DNA from: Rhodothermales bacterium
GTDB lineage: Bacteria; Bacteroidota; Rhodothermia; Rhodothermales; JANQRZ01
Assembly: GCA_028284265.1 (NCBI GenBank)
Contig: JANQRZ010000015.1
Location: 16,808-80,807, forward strand
Reading direction: 5' to 3'
Length of the DNA stretch: 64,000 nt
Shown: positions 19,157 through 58,200 of the stretch, one piece after another
Layout: each line of letters begins with the position of its first letter
How positions within the stretch are numbered: position 1 is the stretch's first letter
Notes under the pieces: generated by a model
The model's input: only the letters and a program-made list of their open reading frames with translations
The model's database searches: none
Told to the model about the DNA's origin: nothing
Made by a program: the position numbers and the translations under genes

Positions 19157-21337
19157 TCAGCGCTGATCGATATCGGCAATGAGGACGTCCATCTCAGGAA
19201 GCCCCATCTGGGCTACGAGGAGAACTGAGCCATCGGTCGATGCCGCGAAGGCCGGTGCCCATAAATCAAGATGAAGGCCGGTACCAAGCGTAGAGTCCGG
19301 GTGCCCATCCGTCCATCGGACTAGGGTGGCTCCGCCGTCGGTTTGACGAAGGTAGAGTAGCCCATCGCGTGTCAGAGACCATGCGGTGGTATGCTCAGGA
19401 TGCAGGTCTGGCAGTGCGAGCGATGGAGGATTCTCGGGCACTGGCTGTCCGTCGCTACCGAGCGGGAGCGACCAGAGGCCCGAAGCGTCGGCGCGGGTAT
19501 ACCACAGAGTCCGCCCATCGGGCGAGGGCGCGAGGACGACTGCATCGGGTACGACAACCACTTCTCTGCTTCCGTCAGCGGCGAGGTGTACGCCTTCCCA
19601 GTGGTTTACATGGCGTCGCCCGACGAACAGCGAGCGACTGTCAGGTGCCCAGCGCGGGTGAGTTTCGTCGGCGTCGGTGTTCGTGAGGCGACGAGGGGTG
19701 CCGCCTTCCGCCGGGATCGTGTAGAGATCGTCCTGTCCCTCGCCCCGCATCACGAAGGCGATGGTATGGCCGTCGGGCGACCACTGCGGGGTGCGTACCG
19801 CAGGCCCGGCGAACGAGGTCAGCGGGCGCGGGGGAGTGCCGTCGAGGTTGGCTGTCCAGAGTTCGGTGTACCCGCTTCGGGTGGAAACGAAGACGGCCCG
19901 CCGCGCATCAGGCGACAGGGCAGGCATCCGGTCCAGCCTGGTTGACGGAGCCAAGGCCACGCCCTCCGTCTCGGTGTCAGAGAGATCGTATAGCCGGAGT
20001 TGGATCGGCAAGTCCCACGACTCGACCACGGCACGGCTTCCGTCTGCGCTGAGTGCCGGACCGATGGGCATCGTGACTTCGAGCGGCAGTGGCATGGGCG
20101 AGGCGCCTGTCGTCGAGAACTGCCAGAGCCGGAACGTGCCGTCCCGGTCTGAGGAAGCCAAGAGGCGTTGGCTGTCGGGGAACCAGCTAAACCGGGCTAC
20201 TTGGCTCCGGTCTGTCGATACAGCCACCGGGTCGCCTCCGCCGATCGATATAACATGGAGGTCACCGGCCATGTCGTCCAGGCGCCGGACGAACGCGAGG
20301 CGCTCTCCGTCGGGAGAGAAGGTGGGGAAGATGTCGCCTGCGGTAGCGGTGGGCGGTGTCGTGAGGCGTCGCTGCTCGCCGGTGTCGAGATCGAGTAAGG
20401 CGAGATGAAACGGGTTCGTCTCTGTAGCCTGTCTGACGGTCGCCAGCGTTCGCCCGCCGGGCGACCATGCCAGCCCGGCGGGCTGCACGATGAGATCGGC
20501 GAGCAGGCGCTCGTCCGTGCCAAGCGCTGACACTCGGTAGGGCCGACAGCCCGTGGCCTCGCAGCGTAGGAACGCGATCTCCTGACCATCCGGGGAGAAG
20601 GTGGGGTAGGTGTCGGCAGGGCCTTCGGTGAGCCGAAGCGGCGTGCCACCTTCCGTCCCGACGATCTCGATGCGGCCCATTCGGCCGCCTTCCTCGAACC
20701 GAACATAGGCCACCCGGTCGCCGGTTGGGGAGAGCGCTGCCAACCCCTCGCTTCCGGTCTGCGCGGTCACCGGGCGTGGCGTACTCATCGTGAGAGCAGG
20801 TGGGGAAGGCGATGTCCAAGGTTGCCACAGTGCGATGCCGAGGGCCACCACGACAAACACCGCGAGGATACCCCAGCCGACCATAGGAGACCGGCGAGCA
20901 GCGGGCACGGTCTCGGCGGCGGGATGTGGCCCAGTGATCTCGGCCCATGCAGGCACGGCGTCGCCCGTCGAAAGCAGCGCTGGAGCCTCAACCGGCTCGG
21001 GGGGGACCAGCATTCGGTAGCCCGTCTTCGGGATTGTCTCGATCAGCGTCGGGGTGCGCGGGTCATCGCCGAGGGCGCGGCGGAGGTCGGAGACGCAGCG
21101 GCTCAGGGCATTCTCGGTCACAACCACGTCCGGCCACACAGCATCGAGCAGTTCATCGCGGGAGACCACGTTGCCCGCACGGGCAGCGAGGTGTGTCAGC
21201 ACGCCCATAACCTTCGGTTCGAGCCGCACGGTCTCGTCGCCCCGTTGGAGTTGCCCGGCCCGAGGGTCAACGGTCCAGTCGCCCAGCCGGAAGTGGCGAG
21301 GCAGGGGGAGGGGTTCTGTGGCGTGCGGGACAGGCAT
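19157..21337 (-). CDS. CadC/ToxR-like winged-helix regulator with TM helix and TolB/PD40 beta-propellers
   Basis: LEPKVMGVL..VSRDELLDAVW..LRRALGD..IETIPKTGYR; hydrophobic segment; repeated (F/W)SPDG motifs. Confidence 0.9.
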   Translation of the reverse strand: MPVPHATEPLPLPRHFRLGDWTVDPRAGQLQRGDETVRLEPKVMGVLTHLAARAGNVVSRDELLDAVWPDVVVTENALSRCVSDLRRALGDDPRTPTLIETIPKTGYRMLVPPEPVEAPALLSTGDAVPAWAEITGPHPAAETVPAARRSPMVGWGILAVFVVVALGIALWQPWTSPSPPALTMSTPRPVTAQTGSEGLAALSPTGDRVAYVRFEEGGRMGRIEIVGTEGGTPLRLTEGPADTYPTFSPDGQEIAFLRCEATGCRPYRVSALGTDERLLADLIVQPAGLAWSPGGRTLATVRQATETNPFHLALLDLDTGEQRRLTTPPTATAGDIFPTFSPDGERLAFVRRLDDMAGDLHVISIGGGDPVAVSTDRSQVARFSWFPDSQRLLASSDRDGTFRLWQFSTTGASPMPLPLEVTMPIGPALSADGSRAVVESWDLPIQLRLYDLSDTETEGVALAPSTRLDRMPALSPDARRAVFVSTRSGYTELWTANLDGTPPRPLTSFAGPAVRTPQWSPDGHTIAFVMRGEGQDDLYTIPAEGGTPRRLTNTDADETHPRWAPDSRSLFVGRRHVNHWEGVHLAADGSREVVVVPDAVVLAPSPDGRTLWYTRADASGLWSLPLGSDGQPVPENPPSLALPDLHPEHTTAWSLTRDGLLYLRQTDGGATLVRWTDGHPDSTLGTGLHLDLWAPAFAASTDGSVLLVAQMGLPEMDVLIADIDQR

Positions 21338-21537: not shown

Positions 21538-22770
21538 ATGGCTCCTCAACGACCCGTGTTCCACCATGCTCTTCTCCTGTGCCTCCTGTCCGGTATTGCG
21601 ATAGCGAGCGCCGCCCAACCCGTCGTCACCACACTCACCGAGCCGTTCTCCGGTAGTGGTGGCATGACGCTTCACCCGACGATCGGTGCACTCTACGTCG
21701 CCGATTTTGGTGACGCGCTCGGATCGTCTGACCCGTCGGACTGGGGGCCGGATGTGAAAGAAGTCTCGACCGACGACGGCTCGTTCAGCGTCTTCGCCAA
21801 TGGGTTCTTCATCGCCACTGGCAACGACTTCGCTTCGGACGGCACAACACTACTCCAAGTCGAACTCGGGCGCGGCTTGGTGTTTCAGGTCTCGCCGAGT
21901 GGGAATCCGGTGCAGTGGGCTAGTGGGCTAGTCTCGCCTGTCGGTATTGCGGCGGCACCCGATGGCGGTGCCTTCGTGGCCGAGTGCGGAGGGAATACTA
22001 TCCAGCGGATCGCCCCCAGAGGGACCAAGGTGCTCTATGCCAGCGACCCTGAATTCAACTGCCCCAACGGCCTCACCATCGGGCCGGACGGTGTGCTCTA
22101 CACGGTCAACTTCAACGACGGGAAGATCTTCCGCATCGACACCGACGGGACCGTGTCGCTGCTTGCCACGGGACCGGGCGGAGGGAATGGGCACGTCGCT
22201 TACGCAGCGGGTCGTCTTATCGTCGCTGACCGGGCCGGGCACCAGATTCTCGGTGTGGGTTTAGACGGGACGGTCGAGGTGATTGCTGGATCGGGCGAGG
22301 CGGGGAACGCCGACGGCCCGGCGTCCGAGGCCACGTTCCGTTTCCCCAACGGCATCGCCGTGACGCCGGACGGCTCGACGATCTACGTCAACAGCAAGTT
22401 CTCCGACGTGGAGGGCGAGTTGAATCCGACGCTCGTGCGCGTCATCAGCGGCGTGCCCGTCGCCGGAGAGGAGGAGACGCCGGAGCGTGATCAGCAAGGG
22501 TTGTTGCCGGTCGCGCCCAACCCGAGCCGGGGCACGGCGACGATCCGCTACACGCTGGCATCGCCCGCCTCGGTCGAACTGGCGGTGTATTCGGTCACAG
22601 GGAAGCGCGTGGCGGTGCTGGAAGACGCGCTGCGTGGGGCCGGGGAGCACGCCGTCGTGTGGGATGGAACCGATGCCTCCGGCCAGTTGGTGGCGGCGGG
22701 CACGTACCTCTGTCGCCTTCGCACGGACGCGGGGCAGGTTGAGTCGCGGCTGCTGACGCTCGTGCATTGA
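21538..22770 (+). CDS. Secreted NHL/SGL-type beta-propeller protein with C-terminal FlgD-Ig/T9SS sorting domain
   Basis: Signal peptide; PNGLTIGPDG, AGSGEAGNADG..ATFRFPNGIAV; APNPSR..VYSVTGKRV..WDGTD..GTYLCRL. Confidence 0.85.
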   Translation: MAPQRPVFHHALLLCLLSGIAIASAAQPVVTTLTEPFSGSGGMTLHPTIGALYVADFGDALGSSDPSDWGPDVKEVSTDDGSFSVFANGFFIATGNDFASDGTTLLQVELGRGLVFQVSPSGNPVQWASGLVSPVGIAAAPDGGAFVAECGGNTIQRIAPRGTKVLYASDPEFNCPNGLTIGPDGVLYTVNFNDGKIFRIDTDGTVSLLATGPGGGNGHVAYAAGRLIVADRAGHQILGVGLDGTVEVIAGSGEAGNADGPASEATFRFPNGIAVTPDGSTIYVNSKFSDVEGELNPTLVRVISGVPVAGEEETPERDQQGLLPVAPNPSRGTATIRYTLASPASVELAVYSVTGKRVAVLEDALRGAGEHAVVWDGTDASGQLVAAGTYLCRLRTDAGQVESRLLTLVH

Positions 22771-22850: not shown

Positions 22851-23981
22851 GTGGCCGATATTCCGGCCATCGCCCGTTCGCTTCTGTTCGCCGACGTGCC
22901 CTCCGTCTCCGACCCCCGGTCCAACAAGCACGATATCCTGCAGGCTGTCTACGAGGACAACCTGCACGCGACGACCCGCGCTCCGCAGCCACGGCGCACC
23001 CATCGCCCGGTGCGTCAGGCCCCGAAGTCGGCGTTGCCCTCGCCGTGGCGGATGGCCCCGGTCGTATTGCTCGCTGTGGTCGGTGTCCTTCTCATAGGTC
23101 TCATCACGCTGAACCTCCAGCCGGAGCCGCCTGCCCCGCGCAGCCAAGCGTCGCTGCGCCTCGCCGATTCGCCGCGCCTCACGCCAGTCGCCGAACCCAG
23201 CGCTCGCTTCGATGTGCCGGACCTCGACCGGCTGCCGATTGCGGAGCTGTTTAATCTTCAGGTCAACACCATCGTGATCGACCCCGGCCACGGCGGGCGC
23301 GACCCCGGCGCGCTCGGACCGGCGGGGGGGCAGGAGAAAGACATCACGCTCGATGTGGCGCTGCGGCTCCGCGACCGGCTCGCCCGTCGCCACGGGGCGC
23401 GCGTGCTGATGACGCGAGAGACGGATGTCGAGGTGGCACTCGGTGAGCGTGTTGCCTTTGCGAACGAGAACGATGCGGACCTCTTCGTCTCGCTCCACGT
23501 CAACTCTATCCCCGATGCCTCGGTCGCGCCGCTCGAAACCTACTACTTCGGCTTGCGGGCCGACGATCAGACGCTTCGCCTCGCGCACGGCGAAAACGGG
23601 GCGGCCAATTATTCCGTGGCTGAGTTCAACACGATGCTGCAACGGGCCGGAAATACGGTTAAATTCCAAGAGTCGAGGCACCTTGCGATGTCGGTCCAGC
23701 AGTCGCTCGTCGAGACGGTCCGCCAGACGAACGCCGAGGCGAGCGACTGGGGCGTCAAGGCTGGGCCGTTCGTCGTGCTTCTCGGCGTGGAGGCCCCCGC
23801 GATCCTCGCCGAGATGGCGGCGATCAGCAACCCCGACGAAGAGGCGCGCCTCGACACCGACGCCCACCGCGAAAGCCTCGCCCGTTCGCTTGAAGAAGGC
23901 ATTGCGGCGTACCTTCAGCACCGGCCGCTCACCAACGCACCTACCCTGATCCCCACCCACGATGGCGAAGAAGACCACTAA
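22851..23981 (+). CDS. Membrane-anchored N-acetylmuramoyl-L-alanine amidase (Amidase_3)
   Basis: IVIDPGHGGRDPGA, EKDITL, MTRETD, FVSLHVNS, PAILAE; N-terminal tail then a TM segment; LAHGEN regulatory-helix-like insert. Confidence 0.92.
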   Translation: MADIPAIARSLLFADVPSVSDPRSNKHDILQAVYEDNLHATTRAPQPRRTHRPVRQAPKSALPSPWRMAPVVLLAVVGVLLIGLITLNLQPEPPAPRSQASLRLADSPRLTPVAEPSARFDVPDLDRLPIAELFNLQVNTIVIDPGHGGRDPGALGPAGGQEKDITLDVALRLRDRLARRHGARVLMTRETDVEVALGERVAFANENDADLFVSLHVNSIPDASVAPLETYYFGLRADDQTLRLAHGENGAANYSVAEFNTMLQRAGNTVKFQESRHLAMSVQQSLVETVRQTNAEASDWGVKAGPFVVLLGVEAPAILAEMAAISNPDEEARLDTDAHRESLARSLEEGIAAYLQHRPLTNAPTLIPTHDGEEDH

Positions 23982-24999
23982 GTCCACCACGAAATCCACC
24001 GCCCCACTCCACATCGGTATCGACCTCGGCACGTCCCGCAGCGCGGTCGTCGCCTCGAACGGCAAGCGAACCTGGGTCGAGAGCTACGTCGCGTGGCCCA
24101 AGGACTTCGTCGCCAAGAAGATGCTCGGCGAGGCGATCCTTTTCGGTGAGCACGCGGTCGAGAACCGGATGTCGGTCGAGTTGGTGCGCCCGCTCGAAAA
24201 CGGCGTCATCCGCGACGGCACCGAGCGCGACGAAGAGGCCGTGCGCGAGTTGATCCACCACCTCATCGAGCAGGTGGAACCTAAAGAAGGACAGCGCATC
24301 CAGGCTGCTGTCGGTGTGCCTGCCGAGGCGCTCAAGGTCAACAAGCTCGCCATCCGCGATGCGGTGCAGGAATACGCTGACGCGCTGATGGTCGTCTCCG
24401 AGCCGTTCGCCGTCGCCTACGGCCTCGATGCGCTCTCGAACGCGATGGTGATCGACATCGGTGCGGGCACGGTGGACTTCTGCGTGATGCACGGCACGAT
24501 GCCGACCGAGGAGGACCAACGCACCCTCACGATGGCGGGCGACTTCGTGGACCGACAGCTTCAGGGCCTCCTCGCCGAGCGTCACCCCGAGGCCAAGTTC
24601 TCCGAGGTCGCTGTCCGTCACTTCAAGGAGCAGCACGGCTACGTCGGTTCCGCCAACGGCAAGCTAGAGATGAAGACGGCGGTCGGCGGCAAAGCCCTCA
24701 ATGTGGACGTATCGAAGGAACTCAAAGAAGCCTGCGAGGCCATCATCCCGGCCATCGCTGAGACCGCCATCGAACTCATCGCCCGCTACGAGCCGGACTT
24801 CCAGGAGGTGCTCCGCAAGAACATCTACCTCGCGGGCGGCGGCAGCCAGATCAAAGGCATCGCCGAGGCCATCGAGGACGCACTCAAGGAGTACGGCCCG
24901 TGCCGCGTCCATACCGTCGACGACCCGCTCTTCGCCGGAGCCGAAGGCGCGCTCGCGCTAGCGCAGGACATGCCCGAGGAGTTCTGGGAGGACATGTAA
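23962..24999 (+). CDS. MamK-like bacterial actin
   Basis: Actin-fold motifs GIDLGTS, VGVPA, VVSEPFAVAYGLD, DIGAGT, AGGGS; features recalled from MamK (PKD..K.LG, P..EDQ.TL..AG, ACEA..P, C-terminal GAL.LA..P..W). Confidence 0.85.
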   Translation: MAKKTTKSTTKSTAPLHIGIDLGTSRSAVVASNGKRTWVESYVAWPKDFVAKKMLGEAILFGEHAVENRMSVELVRPLENGVIRDGTERDEEAVRELIHHLIEQVEPKEGQRIQAAVGVPAEALKVNKLAIRDAVQEYADALMVVSEPFAVAYGLDALSNAMVIDIGAGTVDFCVMHGTMPTEEDQRTLTMAGDFVDRQLQGLLAERHPEAKFSEVAVRHFKEQHGYVGSANGKLEMKTAVGGKALNVDVSKELKEACEAIIPAIAETAIELIARYEPDFQEVLRKNIYLAGGGSQIKGIAEAIEDALKEYGPCRVHTVDDPLFAGAEGALALAQDMPEEFWEDM

Positions 25000-55294: not shown

Positions 55295-58200
55295 CACGTC
55301 CTCGGCCAGCACACGGTCAAGGGTGTCAGCGAGGCGGTCGGCATCGGCCATGCTGAAGACGAGGGGCGGCTTGATCTTGATGACATTGTGGAGCGGGCCA
55401 TCGGTGCTGAGGAGGATGCCGTGATCCTTCATTCGCTCGACGAGGTAGGTGGCCTGCTCCGGTGCCGGTTCCAGCGTAGCGCGGTCAAGCACGAGTTCGA
55501 TGCCGAGGAACAGGCCGAGGCCACGTACATCGCCGATGATCGCGTGCTGCTCGACGAGGGCTTCGAGGCGGCGCTTCAGGTGGGCACCGACCGTCGCCGC
55601 ATTCTCGCGTAGCCCCTCGCTCTCGATCACATCGAGCACCGCGAGGCCGACGGCGCACGAGACGGGGTTGCCGCCGTAGGTGTTGAAGTATTCCATCCCG
55701 TTGGCAAACGAAGATGCAATCTCCGGTGTCGTTACGACCGCTGCGAGCGGGTGGCCGTTGCCAATGGGCTTGCCGAGCGTCACGATGTCCGGCACTACGC
55801 CCTGCGTCTCGAAGCCCCACCAATAACTTCCGACGCGCCCGAACCCGACCTGCACCTCGTCGGCGATGCACACGCCTCCGGCATCACGGGTGTGCCGGTA
55901 GGCCTCGGCGAGGAACCCGTCCGGCAGCACGATCTGTCCACCGCAACTCAGGATCGACTCCGCGATGAACGCCGCGATGTGCCCGTCGGCCTGCCGGATC
56001 GCCTCGGCCACGTAGTCAGCGTAAGGCTGCACGCCGCCGCGATACGTGTCGGGCATCGGGACGGGATGGACGTAGTCCGGCGGGCCGCTGCCGCCGGGGC
56101 CGTCGTGCTTGTACGGGCTGATCTCGATGAGCGACTGGGTGTGGCCGTGGTAGGCTCCGTCGAGCGCGATCACATCCTGCTCGCCGGTGTGCGTCCGGGC
56201 AAGACGAAGAGCTAGGTCGTTGGCCTCGCTGCCGCTGTTAACGAAGAAGCAGACCGAGAGCGAGTCCGGCATGAGGGCGGTCAGCCGCTCGGCGTAGGCG
56301 ATGATGTTGGGGTGGAGGTAGCGCGTGTTGGTGTTGAGCGTTGCCATCTGCCGACTCGCCGCCGCGACGACGCGCGGGTGTGTGTGCCCGACATGGCAGA
56401 CGTTGTTGACACAGTCGAGGTAGGGCCGTCCGGTTTCGTCGTAGAGCGTGGCTCCGACGCCGCGCACGATGTGGAGCGGACGCTGATATGACACACTCAG
56501 CGACGGTCCCAGTTGTTGCTGCCGGGCTGCGAGTAGGTCGCGCTTCGTAGGGCCGGTCGGAGGAAACGCCTCTGCCGGGATGCGGAGCAGCAGGTTTGGG
56601 TCGGGACAGAGCGAACGCCACACGGCGCGCTCGTCGGCGGTCCCGACGCCGGGGAAGTCGCCGCGCTTGCCGAGAGGGTCGGCGATGATTTGCAAATGGA
56701 GGTGCGGTGCCCAGCCGCCGTTTTCCTCTGGTGCGCCGAGGGTTCCAATGGGTTGGCCTCCTCGGACGACATCGCCCTCGGCGAGTCCATCGAGCGAGGC
56801 CCGGCTGAGGTGACCGTAGAGCGTCCAGAACGTCGGTCCATCATTTGGCCGGTGTTCGAGGATAATCGTCGGTCCGTAGTCAAGCGGGAGGGTGTTGTCG
56901 GCGACGCTGTGGATCGTGCCATCGAGCGGAGCGAAGACGGGCGCGCCCGCCGGTTGGAACAGGTCGATGCCGAGATGGATCGTGCGCGTGTGGCCGGTCG
57001 CCTCGTGGAACTGCTCGCCAGTGTAGACCAGCCGCGCCTCGTCATAGCGCCCCACACCGACCTCGGCCTCAGCTTCGACCATGCGCTCCACGATGGTATC
57101 GGACGCGAGCATCGGGACGCTTAGATTGTCTGTATCCCACTCGGCGCTACCTACGCTGAAGTCGAACACCACAACGGGCGACGTGCTTGGGTCGGGCGCG
57201 ACGAACGGGGCGAAGGCGCTCTGGTGCGCTTTCAGCCAGTCGATGAGCGCCGGTGTTTGGGGACACGGTTCGAGGCCACATGCGGCGCGGATGCGATAGG
57301 TCGCCCAGCGAGGGTGAATCGTGTCGAGCCGTTCGAGCGCGGTCCACGCAGCGGCTTCGCTGATTGAGAGGTAGGCGTCGTCCGGTTCATCGCGCTTCCG
57401 ATACGCTGACATCGCCACGCTCAGGCACAGCCGCAGCGTGACGAGCGAGAAGAACGCTTCGAGTTCGTCCTCGGTGAGCGGGTGCTCTGCATGGAAGCCC
57501 GCCGCCACCTCCGCCATCGCTCCGACCGGATCGGGCTTGTCGAGCAGGGCATAGGCCGCCGCAATCGCCGGGTCCGCGACGGTGTAGGACCACGTCGCAT
57601 CGCCGAAGTCGATCAGCCCGGCGATCCGGCGCTCCGTCGAGATCGGCGGCGAGACGAGGATGTTGTAGTCATTCGCATCGCCGTGAATGAGACTCCGACG
57701 AAGCGTGTCGAGATGGGGTGCTGTCTCACGCTCGAACCGGTCGAGGAAGCGCTCGACGAGGTCTTGACGTTTGAGATCGACAATGTGCTGGAGTCGCTCG
57801 CGGATCACTGCCGGTGCGCGGCTCATCTCCCAGTCGAATGCACGGTGCGCGGCGGCGTGGTCAAACCCATCGAGGCAGACGGCGAGCCGACCGAGCGTAG
57901 CGCCGAGGTCATGGAGAAGAGGGGCGGTGTGCGGGTTGACCTCGGCGAGCGGGACGCCCTCGAGATAGGATACCGCCCAGGCAAGATGTCGCTGTCCATC
58001 GCCCTCGACGGTCGTGATGGCGTCGCCCGACGTGTCGAGGCGAAGCGATGGGCAGGGCACGCCGCTCGCTGCGAGGCATTGCAGCATCTCGACCTGCATC
58101 GTGAGCACGCCTTGGTCCTCGGTGGCACTCGCTATCTTGAGGACCCATGCCGGTTCGCCGTCTATGCGGAGCAGCCAGTTCTGGTCACGGTCGCTCGGCA

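Follow-up and report, generated by a model that had tools for sequence, protein, structure and literature searches.

Enzymes of the bacterial cell wall can be guided from the cytoplasmic side of the membrane, as by MreB with RodZ, PBP2 and RodA, or, in Bacillus subtilis, by MreBH with the hydrolase LytE. Periplasmic amidases, which remove stem peptides from glycan strands, are under the control of the cytoplasmic ATPase FtsEX. In this study we describe a pair of overlapping genes encoding a membrane-anchored N-acetylmuramoyl-L-alanine amidase and an actin-like ATPase of the MamK family. The pair lies in a stretch of 64,000 nucleotides from a Rhodothermales bacterium (GenBank assembly GCA_028284265.1, contig JANQRZ010000015.1, positions 16,808 to 80,807 of the forward strand), which was analysed as a whole and is called the window below. 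We propose that the two proteins probably form a dedicated cytoskeleton-hydrolase module, with a MamK-type filament that would hold or move an amidase resembling AmiA/B/C.

The pair shares features with several described systems and departs from each of them. As in MreB-guided wall synthesis, a sub-membrane actin homologue would set the site of a wall enzyme through a transmembrane link; here, however, the actin is not MreB, the genome keeps its own mreB and mreC, and the amidase carries its own predicted docking tail and is encoded in the same operon. The closest solved catalytic domain, including a putative regulatory insert, belongs to the FtsEX-EnvC-AmiA/AmiB system of E. coli (AmiA 8c2o; AmiB-EnvC 8c0j), which also couples a cytoplasmic ATPase to a periplasmic amidase, as is predicted here; but our locus has no ATP-binding cassette transporter or LytM partner, the amidase is itself anchored and shows no detectable AMIN domain, and the cytoplasmic partner is an actin. 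LytH-ActH (7tj4) and CwlD-GerS (7rag), both among the structural matches, likewise combine an N-terminal anchor, an Amidase_3 domain and a partner encoded nearby, but their partners act extracytoplasmically on the catalytic domain, whereas ours is cytoplasmic and predicted to sit on the tail. In ParM-ParR (PDB 4a62) and WH2-actin complexes a short amphipathic helix of the adaptor occupies a hydrophobic cleft whose walls are the C-terminal helix and the strand that follows the phosphate-2 loop, and our model predicts the same arrangement, although sequence similarity and a DNA cargo are lacking and the adaptor is the tail of a transmembrane enzyme. With magnetosome MamK (5ljv, 5ljw, 5jyg) the actin shares the NCBIfam family, a gapless alignment over 330 residues, 41% identity and the ATPase motifs. 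Its clade is nevertheless separate, scores 374-434 bits against 480-548, is never found beside mam genes and has an amidase neighbour, with one exception inside the clade.

MamK-like actins have been reported from organisms without magnetosomes before: BeeR of Verrucomicrobiota (PMC11929497), saltatorellin (bioRxiv 10.1101/817700) and the mamK homologues that lie beside a flotillin-like gene in Thiomargarita (bioRxiv 10.1101/2022.04.11.487978). A further preprint (10.1101/682252) cites earlier work for MamK homologues outside magnetotactic bacteria. In the available portions of the reports on BeeR, saltatorellin and Thiomargarita the functions are unknown or merely proposed and an amidase partner is not mentioned, whereas the clade described here has a conserved predicted partner. 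Our literature search, with subscription papers outside its scope, found nothing joining MamK with an amidase; queries for 'bacterial actin' with amidase returned no paper on this pair, and those for MamK with Rhodothermales names returned nothing relevant.

Results

The actin belongs to the MamK family

A first-pass annotation of the window had described a 345-residue actin-fold ATPase starting 20 nucleotides before the stop of an amidase gene and had placed it nearer to MamK than to MreB. Both reading frames and their overlap were confirmed (Table 1), the overlap being compatible with translational coupling of the two genes, and the actin motifs quoted in that annotation (IGIDLGTS, SEPFAVAYG, DIGAGT and AGGGS) are all present in the translation. 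The family assignment held as well. The NCBIfam MamK model (NF040964) matches the protein with 415.1 bits (416.2 in the search of the whole genome), narrowly over its cut-off of 400, whereas the MreB models stay under theirs (PRK13927, 88.8 vs 293; TIGR00904, 71 vs 365.75) and the BeeR model lies far under its own (226.8 vs 530). Pfam gives a generic MreB_Mbl match alone (97.6 bits). Among solved structures the actin aligns without gaps to Magnetospirillum MamK 5ljw (residues 15-344 on 11-340, 286 bits), which makes MamK its best solved relative; BeeR (structure 8r2n) is second with 159 bits, and MreB reaches 64 bits. An identity as MreB was ruled out by the MreB scores together with a separate true mreB, which lies with adjoining mreC on contig C8 of the same genome (447 bits on PF06723).

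An AlphaFold2 model of the actin, built on an alignment of 40 orthologues, has a mean predicted local distance difference test (pLDDT) value of 89.0. Its top match in Foldseek is the MamK filament subunit 5ljv_A, with a template-modelling (TM) score of 0.91/0.96, a root-mean-square deviation (rmsd) of 1.4 Å and 41% identity; it superposes less well on the non-polymerising MamK monomer 5ljw (TM 0.72-0.86), on BeeR and on MreB. The residues G19, D21, G23, T24, S146, E147, P148, F149, D165, G167, G169, T170, G292, G293 and S295 are invariant in 40/40 orthologues. By the alignment offset with 5ljw, E147 corresponds to E143 of MamK, which we take to be the catalytic glutamate. The actin most likely polymerises with ATP in the cytoplasm, of which the closeness of the model to the filament-state subunit is an indirect hint.

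Phylogenetic trees were calculated from the amidase-linked actins, the magnetosome-type MamK proteins, the full-length sequences among the 150 best representatives that a search of 1.84 billion proteins yielded (77 of the 150, with at least 300 aligned residues, were kept and 73 omitted) and the genome's own MreB as outgroup. Rows taken from loci were thinned at 85% identity for the amidase-linked and at 75% for the magnetosome type, which gave 126 rows for FastTree; 70 of these were picked by hand for a careful IQ-TREE run under LG+C20+F+G4. In the latter tree a branch sets the 17 amidase-linked rows apart from all others with an ultrafast bootstrap of 100 and a Shimodaira-Hasegawa-like approximate likelihood ratio (SH-aLRT) support of 99, and 10 magnetosome MamK rows likewise form one side of a branch of their own (100/99). 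FastTree agrees on both separate clades, which sit in a wider MamK superfamily with several further clades. The order of the clades is not settled by the trees and the root hangs on the single very long branch of the outgroup, so that we make no claim as to which clade is older. Grouping inside MreB had been named as an alternative, and the actin does not group there; it shares 38-43% identity with 30 magnetosome-type MamK proteins. The actin is thus to be placed in a sister clade within the MamK family, apart from magnetosome MamK. Members of the amidase-linked clade score 374-434 bits and the curated MamK cut-off of 400 cuts through the clade, for which reason annotation names some of them MamK family and others rod shape-determining protein, as seen in the source names; some already carry the label 'MamK family actin-like protein' at NCBI.

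Elsewhere in the superfamily, 14 MamK-like domains form a tight clade (FastTree support 99) with N-terminal extensions of 170-900 residues (P0130, P0133, P0134, P0136, P0137, P0139, P0143-P0145, P0147, P0150, P0151, P0154 and P0155). An amidase-actin fusion of the Rosetta stone kind was sought and not found: in 10/10 long MamK-like representatives scanned, the N-terminal extension has no Pfam domain. Some genomes carry two MamK-family genes (L144, G372:C113:7338-26292; L142 and L143, G304; L145, G479), which are ~8 kb apart in G372, and these second copies cluster with P0152, outside both the magnetosome MamK and the amidase-linked clade.

The amidase and the actin are inherited together

In a sample of 151 genomes of the order Rhodothermales, 55 have a MamK-family match of at least 373 bits, patchy over families, and a further genome has a partial match where a contig ends. 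Immediately upstream of the actin gene, and on its strand, there is an amidase orthologue in 30/30 of the Rhodothermales loci, our own included, and in 6/6 further ones. Across a sample of 401 Bacteroidota genomes, 13 have such a match and all 13 are Rhodothermales. A search for related loci returned 74, chiefly from Rhodothermales, which include the cultured species Roseithermus sacchariphilus (L043), and also from uncultured Gammaproteobacteria, Thiogranum, a metagenome-assembled genome (MAG) of Nitrosomonadales and Syntrophobacteraceae. The amidase is upstream in 71 of these 74, and the other three begin inside the actin gene and thus hold no upstream DNA. Most orthologous pairs overlap or are separated by a gap of few bases, the exceptions being L065 (284 nucleotides) and L066 (1691 nucleotides).

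The partnership follows the clade. An even sample of 400 Gammaproteobacteria contained 14 genomes with a MamK-family match, seven of which carry an actin 52-62% identical to ours; the amidase is present in six of the seven. In nine gammaproteobacterial loci with actins 39-44% identical it is present in none, and no amidase was found within 1.5 kb of the gene in any of 30 loci of magnetosome-type mamK. Over 780 pairs the pairwise identities of amidase and actin correlate with r = 0.87, and the split between Rhodothermales and the Gammaproteobacteria with Syntrophobacteraceae seen in the actin tree recurs in the amidase tree (support 88). Amidase and actin are thus inherited as a unit and evolve together, and their pairing, kept in the order and across phyla, is far beyond chance. 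No third gene was found to be shared across phyla, where the cluster counts are floors, as the greedy picking of open reading frames (ORFs) sometimes took antisense frames in these high-GC genomes.

Two side observations concern the surroundings of the pair in other genomes. In one Rhodothermales subclade (a subset of L065-L104) the pair stands between the genes for thymidylate synthase (20 loci) and dihydrofolate reductase (22 loci), Pfam-confirmed examples being L083:8073-8963 and L087:6707-7234, and it looks as if it had been inserted into thyA-folA. Furthermore, 12 proteobacterial loci, from 11 Gammaproteobacteria and the Nitrosomonadales MAG (L091), encode a conserved ~285-residue protein that is rich in coiled coils, ends in a C-terminal membrane helix and matches no Pfam family (L072, L073, L075, L076, L078, L086, L088, L090-L092, L099 and L108; e.g. 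L090:5499-6356, minus strand). Its gene is divergent and ~1.3 kb upstream of the amidase in 11 loci and downstream of the actin in L091. It could be a lineage-specific third component.

A conserved motif in the cytoplasmic tail of the amidase

The first-pass annotation had ascribed to the amidase an N-terminal tail and a membrane anchor. Both appear in its AlphaFold2 model (pLDDT 79.4), in which a helix at residues 23-42 is followed by a hydrophobic helix at 69-88, disorder at 89-129 and a confident domain at 140-356. By the positive-inside rule the topology would be N-in. Orthologues of three phyla share in the tail, 15-35 residues before the membrane helix, a motif with the consensus …[KR]xx[ILV]L[RQ]xVYEDN[LQ]… (core ILxxVYEDN), in which 40 orthologues all have N37 and conserve L30 and V33 to at least 90%; the tail sequence flanking it and the periplasmic linker are unconserved. 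As the tail is conserved in frame across phyla it must be translated, which makes the hydrophobic helix an anchor instead of a signal peptide that is cleaved off. A hidden Markov model of the motif, run against the ORFs of all six frames of the genome, matched the amidase of the pair alone (E 3.3e-7; next best 1.2). A word-based search with tail residues 18-90 returned four close relatives only and is uninformative on distribution. In Roseithermus sacchariphilus (L043:8813-9988) and a related MAG (L050:8720-9937) the motif occurs twice in tandem, which recalls actin nucleators with repeated binding helices.

The motif is predicted to dock on the actin

Modelling the tail with the actin had been suggested as a check on the idea that the tail links the two proteins, and the idea gained support from it, as from the spread of the motif over three phyla. 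Amidase residues 16-66 were modelled with the actin, using our own orthologue alignments for both, and the complex reached interface scores (ipSAE) of 0.82, 0.81 and 0.81, whereas none of three controls exceeded 0.00. At least 52% of the contacts are common to the runs, and the pLDDT of the partner is at least 52. The mark for such scores is met by 58 of 80 solved complexes and by 2 of 110 mismatched pairs, a calibration that is rough here because own alignments were used.

All confident contacts on the amidase side fall within residues 25-40, that is, within the conserved motif. On the actin side they comprise residues 129, 132, 142-145, 153, 158-159, 178-180, 333, 336-338, 341 and 344-345, which in the model belong to strand 141-146, the next helix and the C-terminal helix 322-336 with its tail. 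We take this site to be the hydrophobic cleft that separates subdomains IA and IIA and receives ParR in ParM and WH2 helices in actin. The amidase-linked clade conserves D336 and M337, in place of which magnetosome MamK has E and L; overall the cleft residues that differ between the clades are L129, R132, L142, D336, M337 and the last two residues, a weak enrichment. The tail motif is hence predicted to dock on the actin.

The amidase is of the AmiA/B/C type

The catalytic domain is recognised by Pfam PF01520 (Amidase_3; 154.6 bits, residues 141-352). The claim that it keeps its zinc-binding and catalytic motifs was borne out: H147, E162, H216 and E321 align with AmiA and AmiB and are invariant in 40/40 orthologues, and we presume from the literature on AmiB and AmiC that they are the metal-binding and catalytic residues. 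The domain aligns over its full length solely with E. coli AmiA 8c2o, Bartonella AmiB 3ne8 and E. coli AmiC 4bin, whereas amidases without the insert (CwlV 1jwq, 4rn7, 5emi) align up to about residue 240 only. Foldseek ranks autoinhibited AmiA 8c2o first (TM 0.85 by target, rmsd 2.5 Å), while EnvC-bound AmiB 8c0j superposes worse (rmsd 6.7 Å). The insert forms helices 239-249 and 256-266 in the model, with A245, E248 and N249 invariant among the 40 orthologues; following work on AmiB and AmiC, its role is presumably autoinhibitory. Equivalog models all remain under their cut-offs (AmiC 99.5 vs 700, AmiA 98.6 vs 400, AmiB 79.7 vs 532), as does the CwlD model TIGR02883, which matches in two stretches (125.1 bits vs 221.55). 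The Pfam scan detected no AMIN domain, in place of which the protein has the cytoplasmic tail and the membrane helix. Across orthologues the unconserved linker between membrane helix and catalytic domain varies from ~40 to 170 residues.

Judged by its conserved residues the amidase is very probably active as an enzyme, and by analogy it is probably autoinhibited. Because it retains an insert that aligns with the regulatory one of AmiA/B/C, it probably still needs a periplasmic activator. The genome encodes five Peptidase_M23 (LytM) proteins over cut-off as candidate activators. One of the five has its Peptidase_M23 domain in the window at 56684-56980 on the minus strand (G000:C4:73491-73787), in an open frame of ~1000 codons ~32 kb downstream of the pair, and is a possible activator.

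Magnetosome genes and mobile elements

The genome (3.70 Mb in 24 contigs, 97.86% complete) was searched with curated models of magnetosome proteins. The best matches remain under cut-off (MamB-like 107.7 vs 350, MamQ-like 87.9 vs 250, MamE-like 143.9 vs 800), at the level at which non-magnetotactic control genomes score, and the MamI model has no match genome-wide. Reference magnetosome loci were sought in 401 Pseudomonadota genomes, 59 of which have strong MamK matches of 480-548 bits. Two reference clusters, L140/L141 and L147, were validated by best matches to MamH, MamI, MamE, MamK, MamM, MamO, MamQ, MamB and MamA, and their ORFs match our genome merely as scattered generic paralogues of low identity on eight contigs. 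A magnetosome island elsewhere in the genome, which the first-pass annotation had named as an alternative source of the gene, was rejected on the model scores and the search with the cluster ORFs. Its statement that the window holds no mreC, mreD or mam genes stands for mreC and the magnetosome genes, none of which occurs on the contig; mreD was not searched for, either here or beside the mreB-mreC of contig C8 that answered its call for separate mre genes.

A phage or plasmid module was rejected as well. PHROGs labels the amidase domain endolysin-like and matches the actin weakly to a partition protein, but these matches are generic, and the best phage and plasmid matches to the actin in tblastn are 24-31% identical, which is the level of MreB.

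Features and neighbours of the pair in the window

The coordinates of the features are collected in Table 1. An alternative in-frame GTG at 22896 (residue 16) is used by the closest orthologue, and the amidase may start there instead of at 22851. Upstream of the pair, the window encodes an NHL-repeat protein with a secretion-type C-terminus resembling FlgD_ig/Por_Secre_tail (21538-22770, plus strand) and a 726-residue protein composed of a winged-helix Trans_reg_C domain and PD40 beta-propeller repeats (19157-21337, minus strand). Downstream of the actin follow a convergent ORF of 152 codons without a family match and a DUF2911-TPR protein. These window neighbours are not kept beside the pair in the loci of other genomes compared, and a scan of the locus for promoters and terminators gave no informative result.

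Table 1. Coordinates of the amidase-actin pair and its features (window positions)
Feature	Position	Strand	Remarks
Membrane-anchored N-acetylmuramoyl-L-alanine amidase	22851..23981	+	376 residues, GTG start; ORF list and Pfam Amidase_3
Conserved cytoplasmic tail motif (residues 25-40, NKHDILQAVYEDNLHA), predicted actin-docking helix	22923..22970	+	
Single transmembrane helix (residues 69-88), basic stretch before it	23055..23114	+	AlphaFold2 helix; hydrophobic run read from translation
Periplasmic linker, disordered, Pro/Ala-rich	23115..23255	+	pLDDT <50 at residues 97-119; length varies
Amidase_3 catalytic domain (residues 141-352), AmiA/AmiB/AmiC type	23271..23906	+	Pfam, structure alignments
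Insert in catalytic domain (~residues 235-290)	23553..23720	+	Aligns with regulatory-helix region of AmiA/B/C
Overlap of amidase stop region and actin start	23962..23981	+	20 nucleotides; actin ATG within the last codons of the amidase
MamK-family actin-like ATPase, amidase-linked clade	23962..24999	+	345 residues, ATG start; NCBIfam NF040964
Actin C-terminal helix and tail (residues 333-345), part of predicted docking cleft	24958..24996	+	Complex model

Discussion

In our proposed mechanism the MamK-family actin would polymerise with ATP in the cytoplasm and form a filament under the membrane. The amidase would be a bitopic inner-membrane protein with a cytoplasmic N-terminal tail of ~50-65 residues bearing one conserved amphipathic helix, followed by one transmembrane helix, a long floppy periplasmic linker and a C-terminal amidase of the AmiA/B/C type. 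The helix of the tail would dock in the hydrophobic cleft of the actin (strand 142-145, Y153, L158, 178-180 and the C-terminal helix 333-345), and the filament would be tied to the membrane by many amidase tails or would bear amidases at its ends. As such it might gather, align or move the amidase in the membrane, while the catalytic domain, on a floppy linker long enough for the wall, would confine the cleavage of stem peptides to the position of the filament. The process served might be cell separation, local shape change, wall marking or another one. As the genome has a second Amidase_3 protein (contig C15) besides mreB-mreC, the pair would be an accessory system. We infer that the role of the filament is to place the enzyme, and neither to regulate it nor to be anchored by it; with a linker that is disordered and variable, placement is favoured over conformational signalling.

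Several observations weigh against such a positioning role. The same long disordered linker permits only loose spatial coupling. The sets of loci are kin to each other and share genomes, and the number of independent lineages is about three. The actin of one genome, G1186 (L166/L173), belongs to the clade and has no upstream amidase, one isolated case from an assembly of uncertain completeness; the only Amidase_3 protein detected in this genome has a signal resembling that of the twin-arginine (Tat) pathway and no tail motif, and in its actin the interface residues D336 and M337 are replaced, so that the C-terminal interface differs from the clade consensus. On the predicted interface itself, the cleft residues M143, V145, Y153, L158, G178, L333 and P338 are common to our clade and magnetosome MamK, and its specificity is not significant, with 3/19 interface positions discriminating the clades vs 24/330 overall. 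The complex score is the model's own confidence, part of which may stem from likeness to known complexes of helices in actin clefts. Furthermore, the equivalent cleft is used inside the filament in ParM and F-actin, and the tail might bind only monomers or filament ends. As a side observation on G1186, an 838-residue protein encoded upstream of its actin (L173:6042-9832; G1186:C166) has GGDEF and EAL motifs, seen by eye in the translation.

The dependence might also be reversed, with the amidase acting as a membrane or wall anchor, or as the nucleator, of a filament whose job lies elsewhere (at the membrane, the chromosome or other cargo), its enzymatic activity being secondary. We consider this unlikely. 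It would agree with the use of the predicted docking site by end-binding adaptors of ParM, with the tandem motifs of L043 and L050, which resemble nucleators with repeated actin-binding helices, with the amidase-less actin of G1186, and with the conserved tail-anchored coiled-coil protein near the pair in 12 proteobacterial loci. However, the invariance of the catalytic and metal-binding residues in 40/40 orthologues argues that enzyme activity is under selection, a third gene conserved across phyla was not found, and this genome has the motif on the amidase alone, so that there is no other cargo with this adaptor here.

Quite unlikely in our opinion is a regulatory function resembling that of FtsEX, in which ATP-dependent binding of the tail controls the activity, stability or membrane insertion of the amidase. 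A disordered, unconserved linker of ~40 to 170 residues would be a poor conductor of a conformational signal, and the five LytM proteins could serve as activators, even though the putative regulatory insert, the apparent translational coupling of the genes and the predicted contact of the tail would suit such control. It is very unlikely that the two genes are co-transcribed neighbours whose products never touch each other. Prediction scores can mislead and the binding is a prediction; but the pair is kept across three phyla while other neighbours change, the overlap of start and stop is conserved, a cytoplasmic motif is conserved on a periplasmic enzyme, and the complex scores 0.81 vs 0.00 in controls. 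Finally, that the gene belongs to a magnetosome system or is left over from one, or that it is a phage or plasmid module of endolysin and partition actin, as the MamK model over cut-off and the PHROGs matches might suggest, is highly improbable in view of a 97.86%-complete genome without magnetosome genes over cut-off, a clade separate from magnetosome MamK, phage and plasmid actins with no more than the 24-31% identity of MreB, and neighbours that are housekeeping genes, with thyA/folA flanking the pair in one Rhodothermales subclade.

If the filament indeed positions the amidase, it might do so actively. A more speculative possibility, which we regard as rather unlikely, is that the filament is cytomotive, as MamK is, with the tail as an adaptor that, in the manner of ParR or WH2, tracks the filament end or binds its side. 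By polymerising, the filament would then drive the amidase along the membrane and leave in the wall a line or zone of glycan free of stem peptides; this wall-linked role could be the older one within the MamK family, with the magnetosome filament recruited from it later. If true, a cytoplasmic motor would steer a periplasmic cutter directly, without an intervening synthase complex.

In conclusion, we describe a new clade of the MamK family with what would be a new kind of direct link, within the known field of cytoskeleton-guided wall remodelling. If our reading is true, the cytoplasmic tail of a peptidoglycan amidase ties the enzyme directly to a bacterial actin, the first such case to our knowledge and distinct from MreB-guided synthesis and from control by FtsEX-EnvC. 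The pair is present in about one third of the sampled Rhodothermales genomes and in several proteobacterial and Syntrophobacteraceae lineages. For genome surveys this means that mamK alone is an unsafe marker of magnetotaxis. With a partner supplied by its own locus, a motif that is conserved and an interface predicted by modelling, the clade makes a role for a MamK-type actin without magnetosomes testable.

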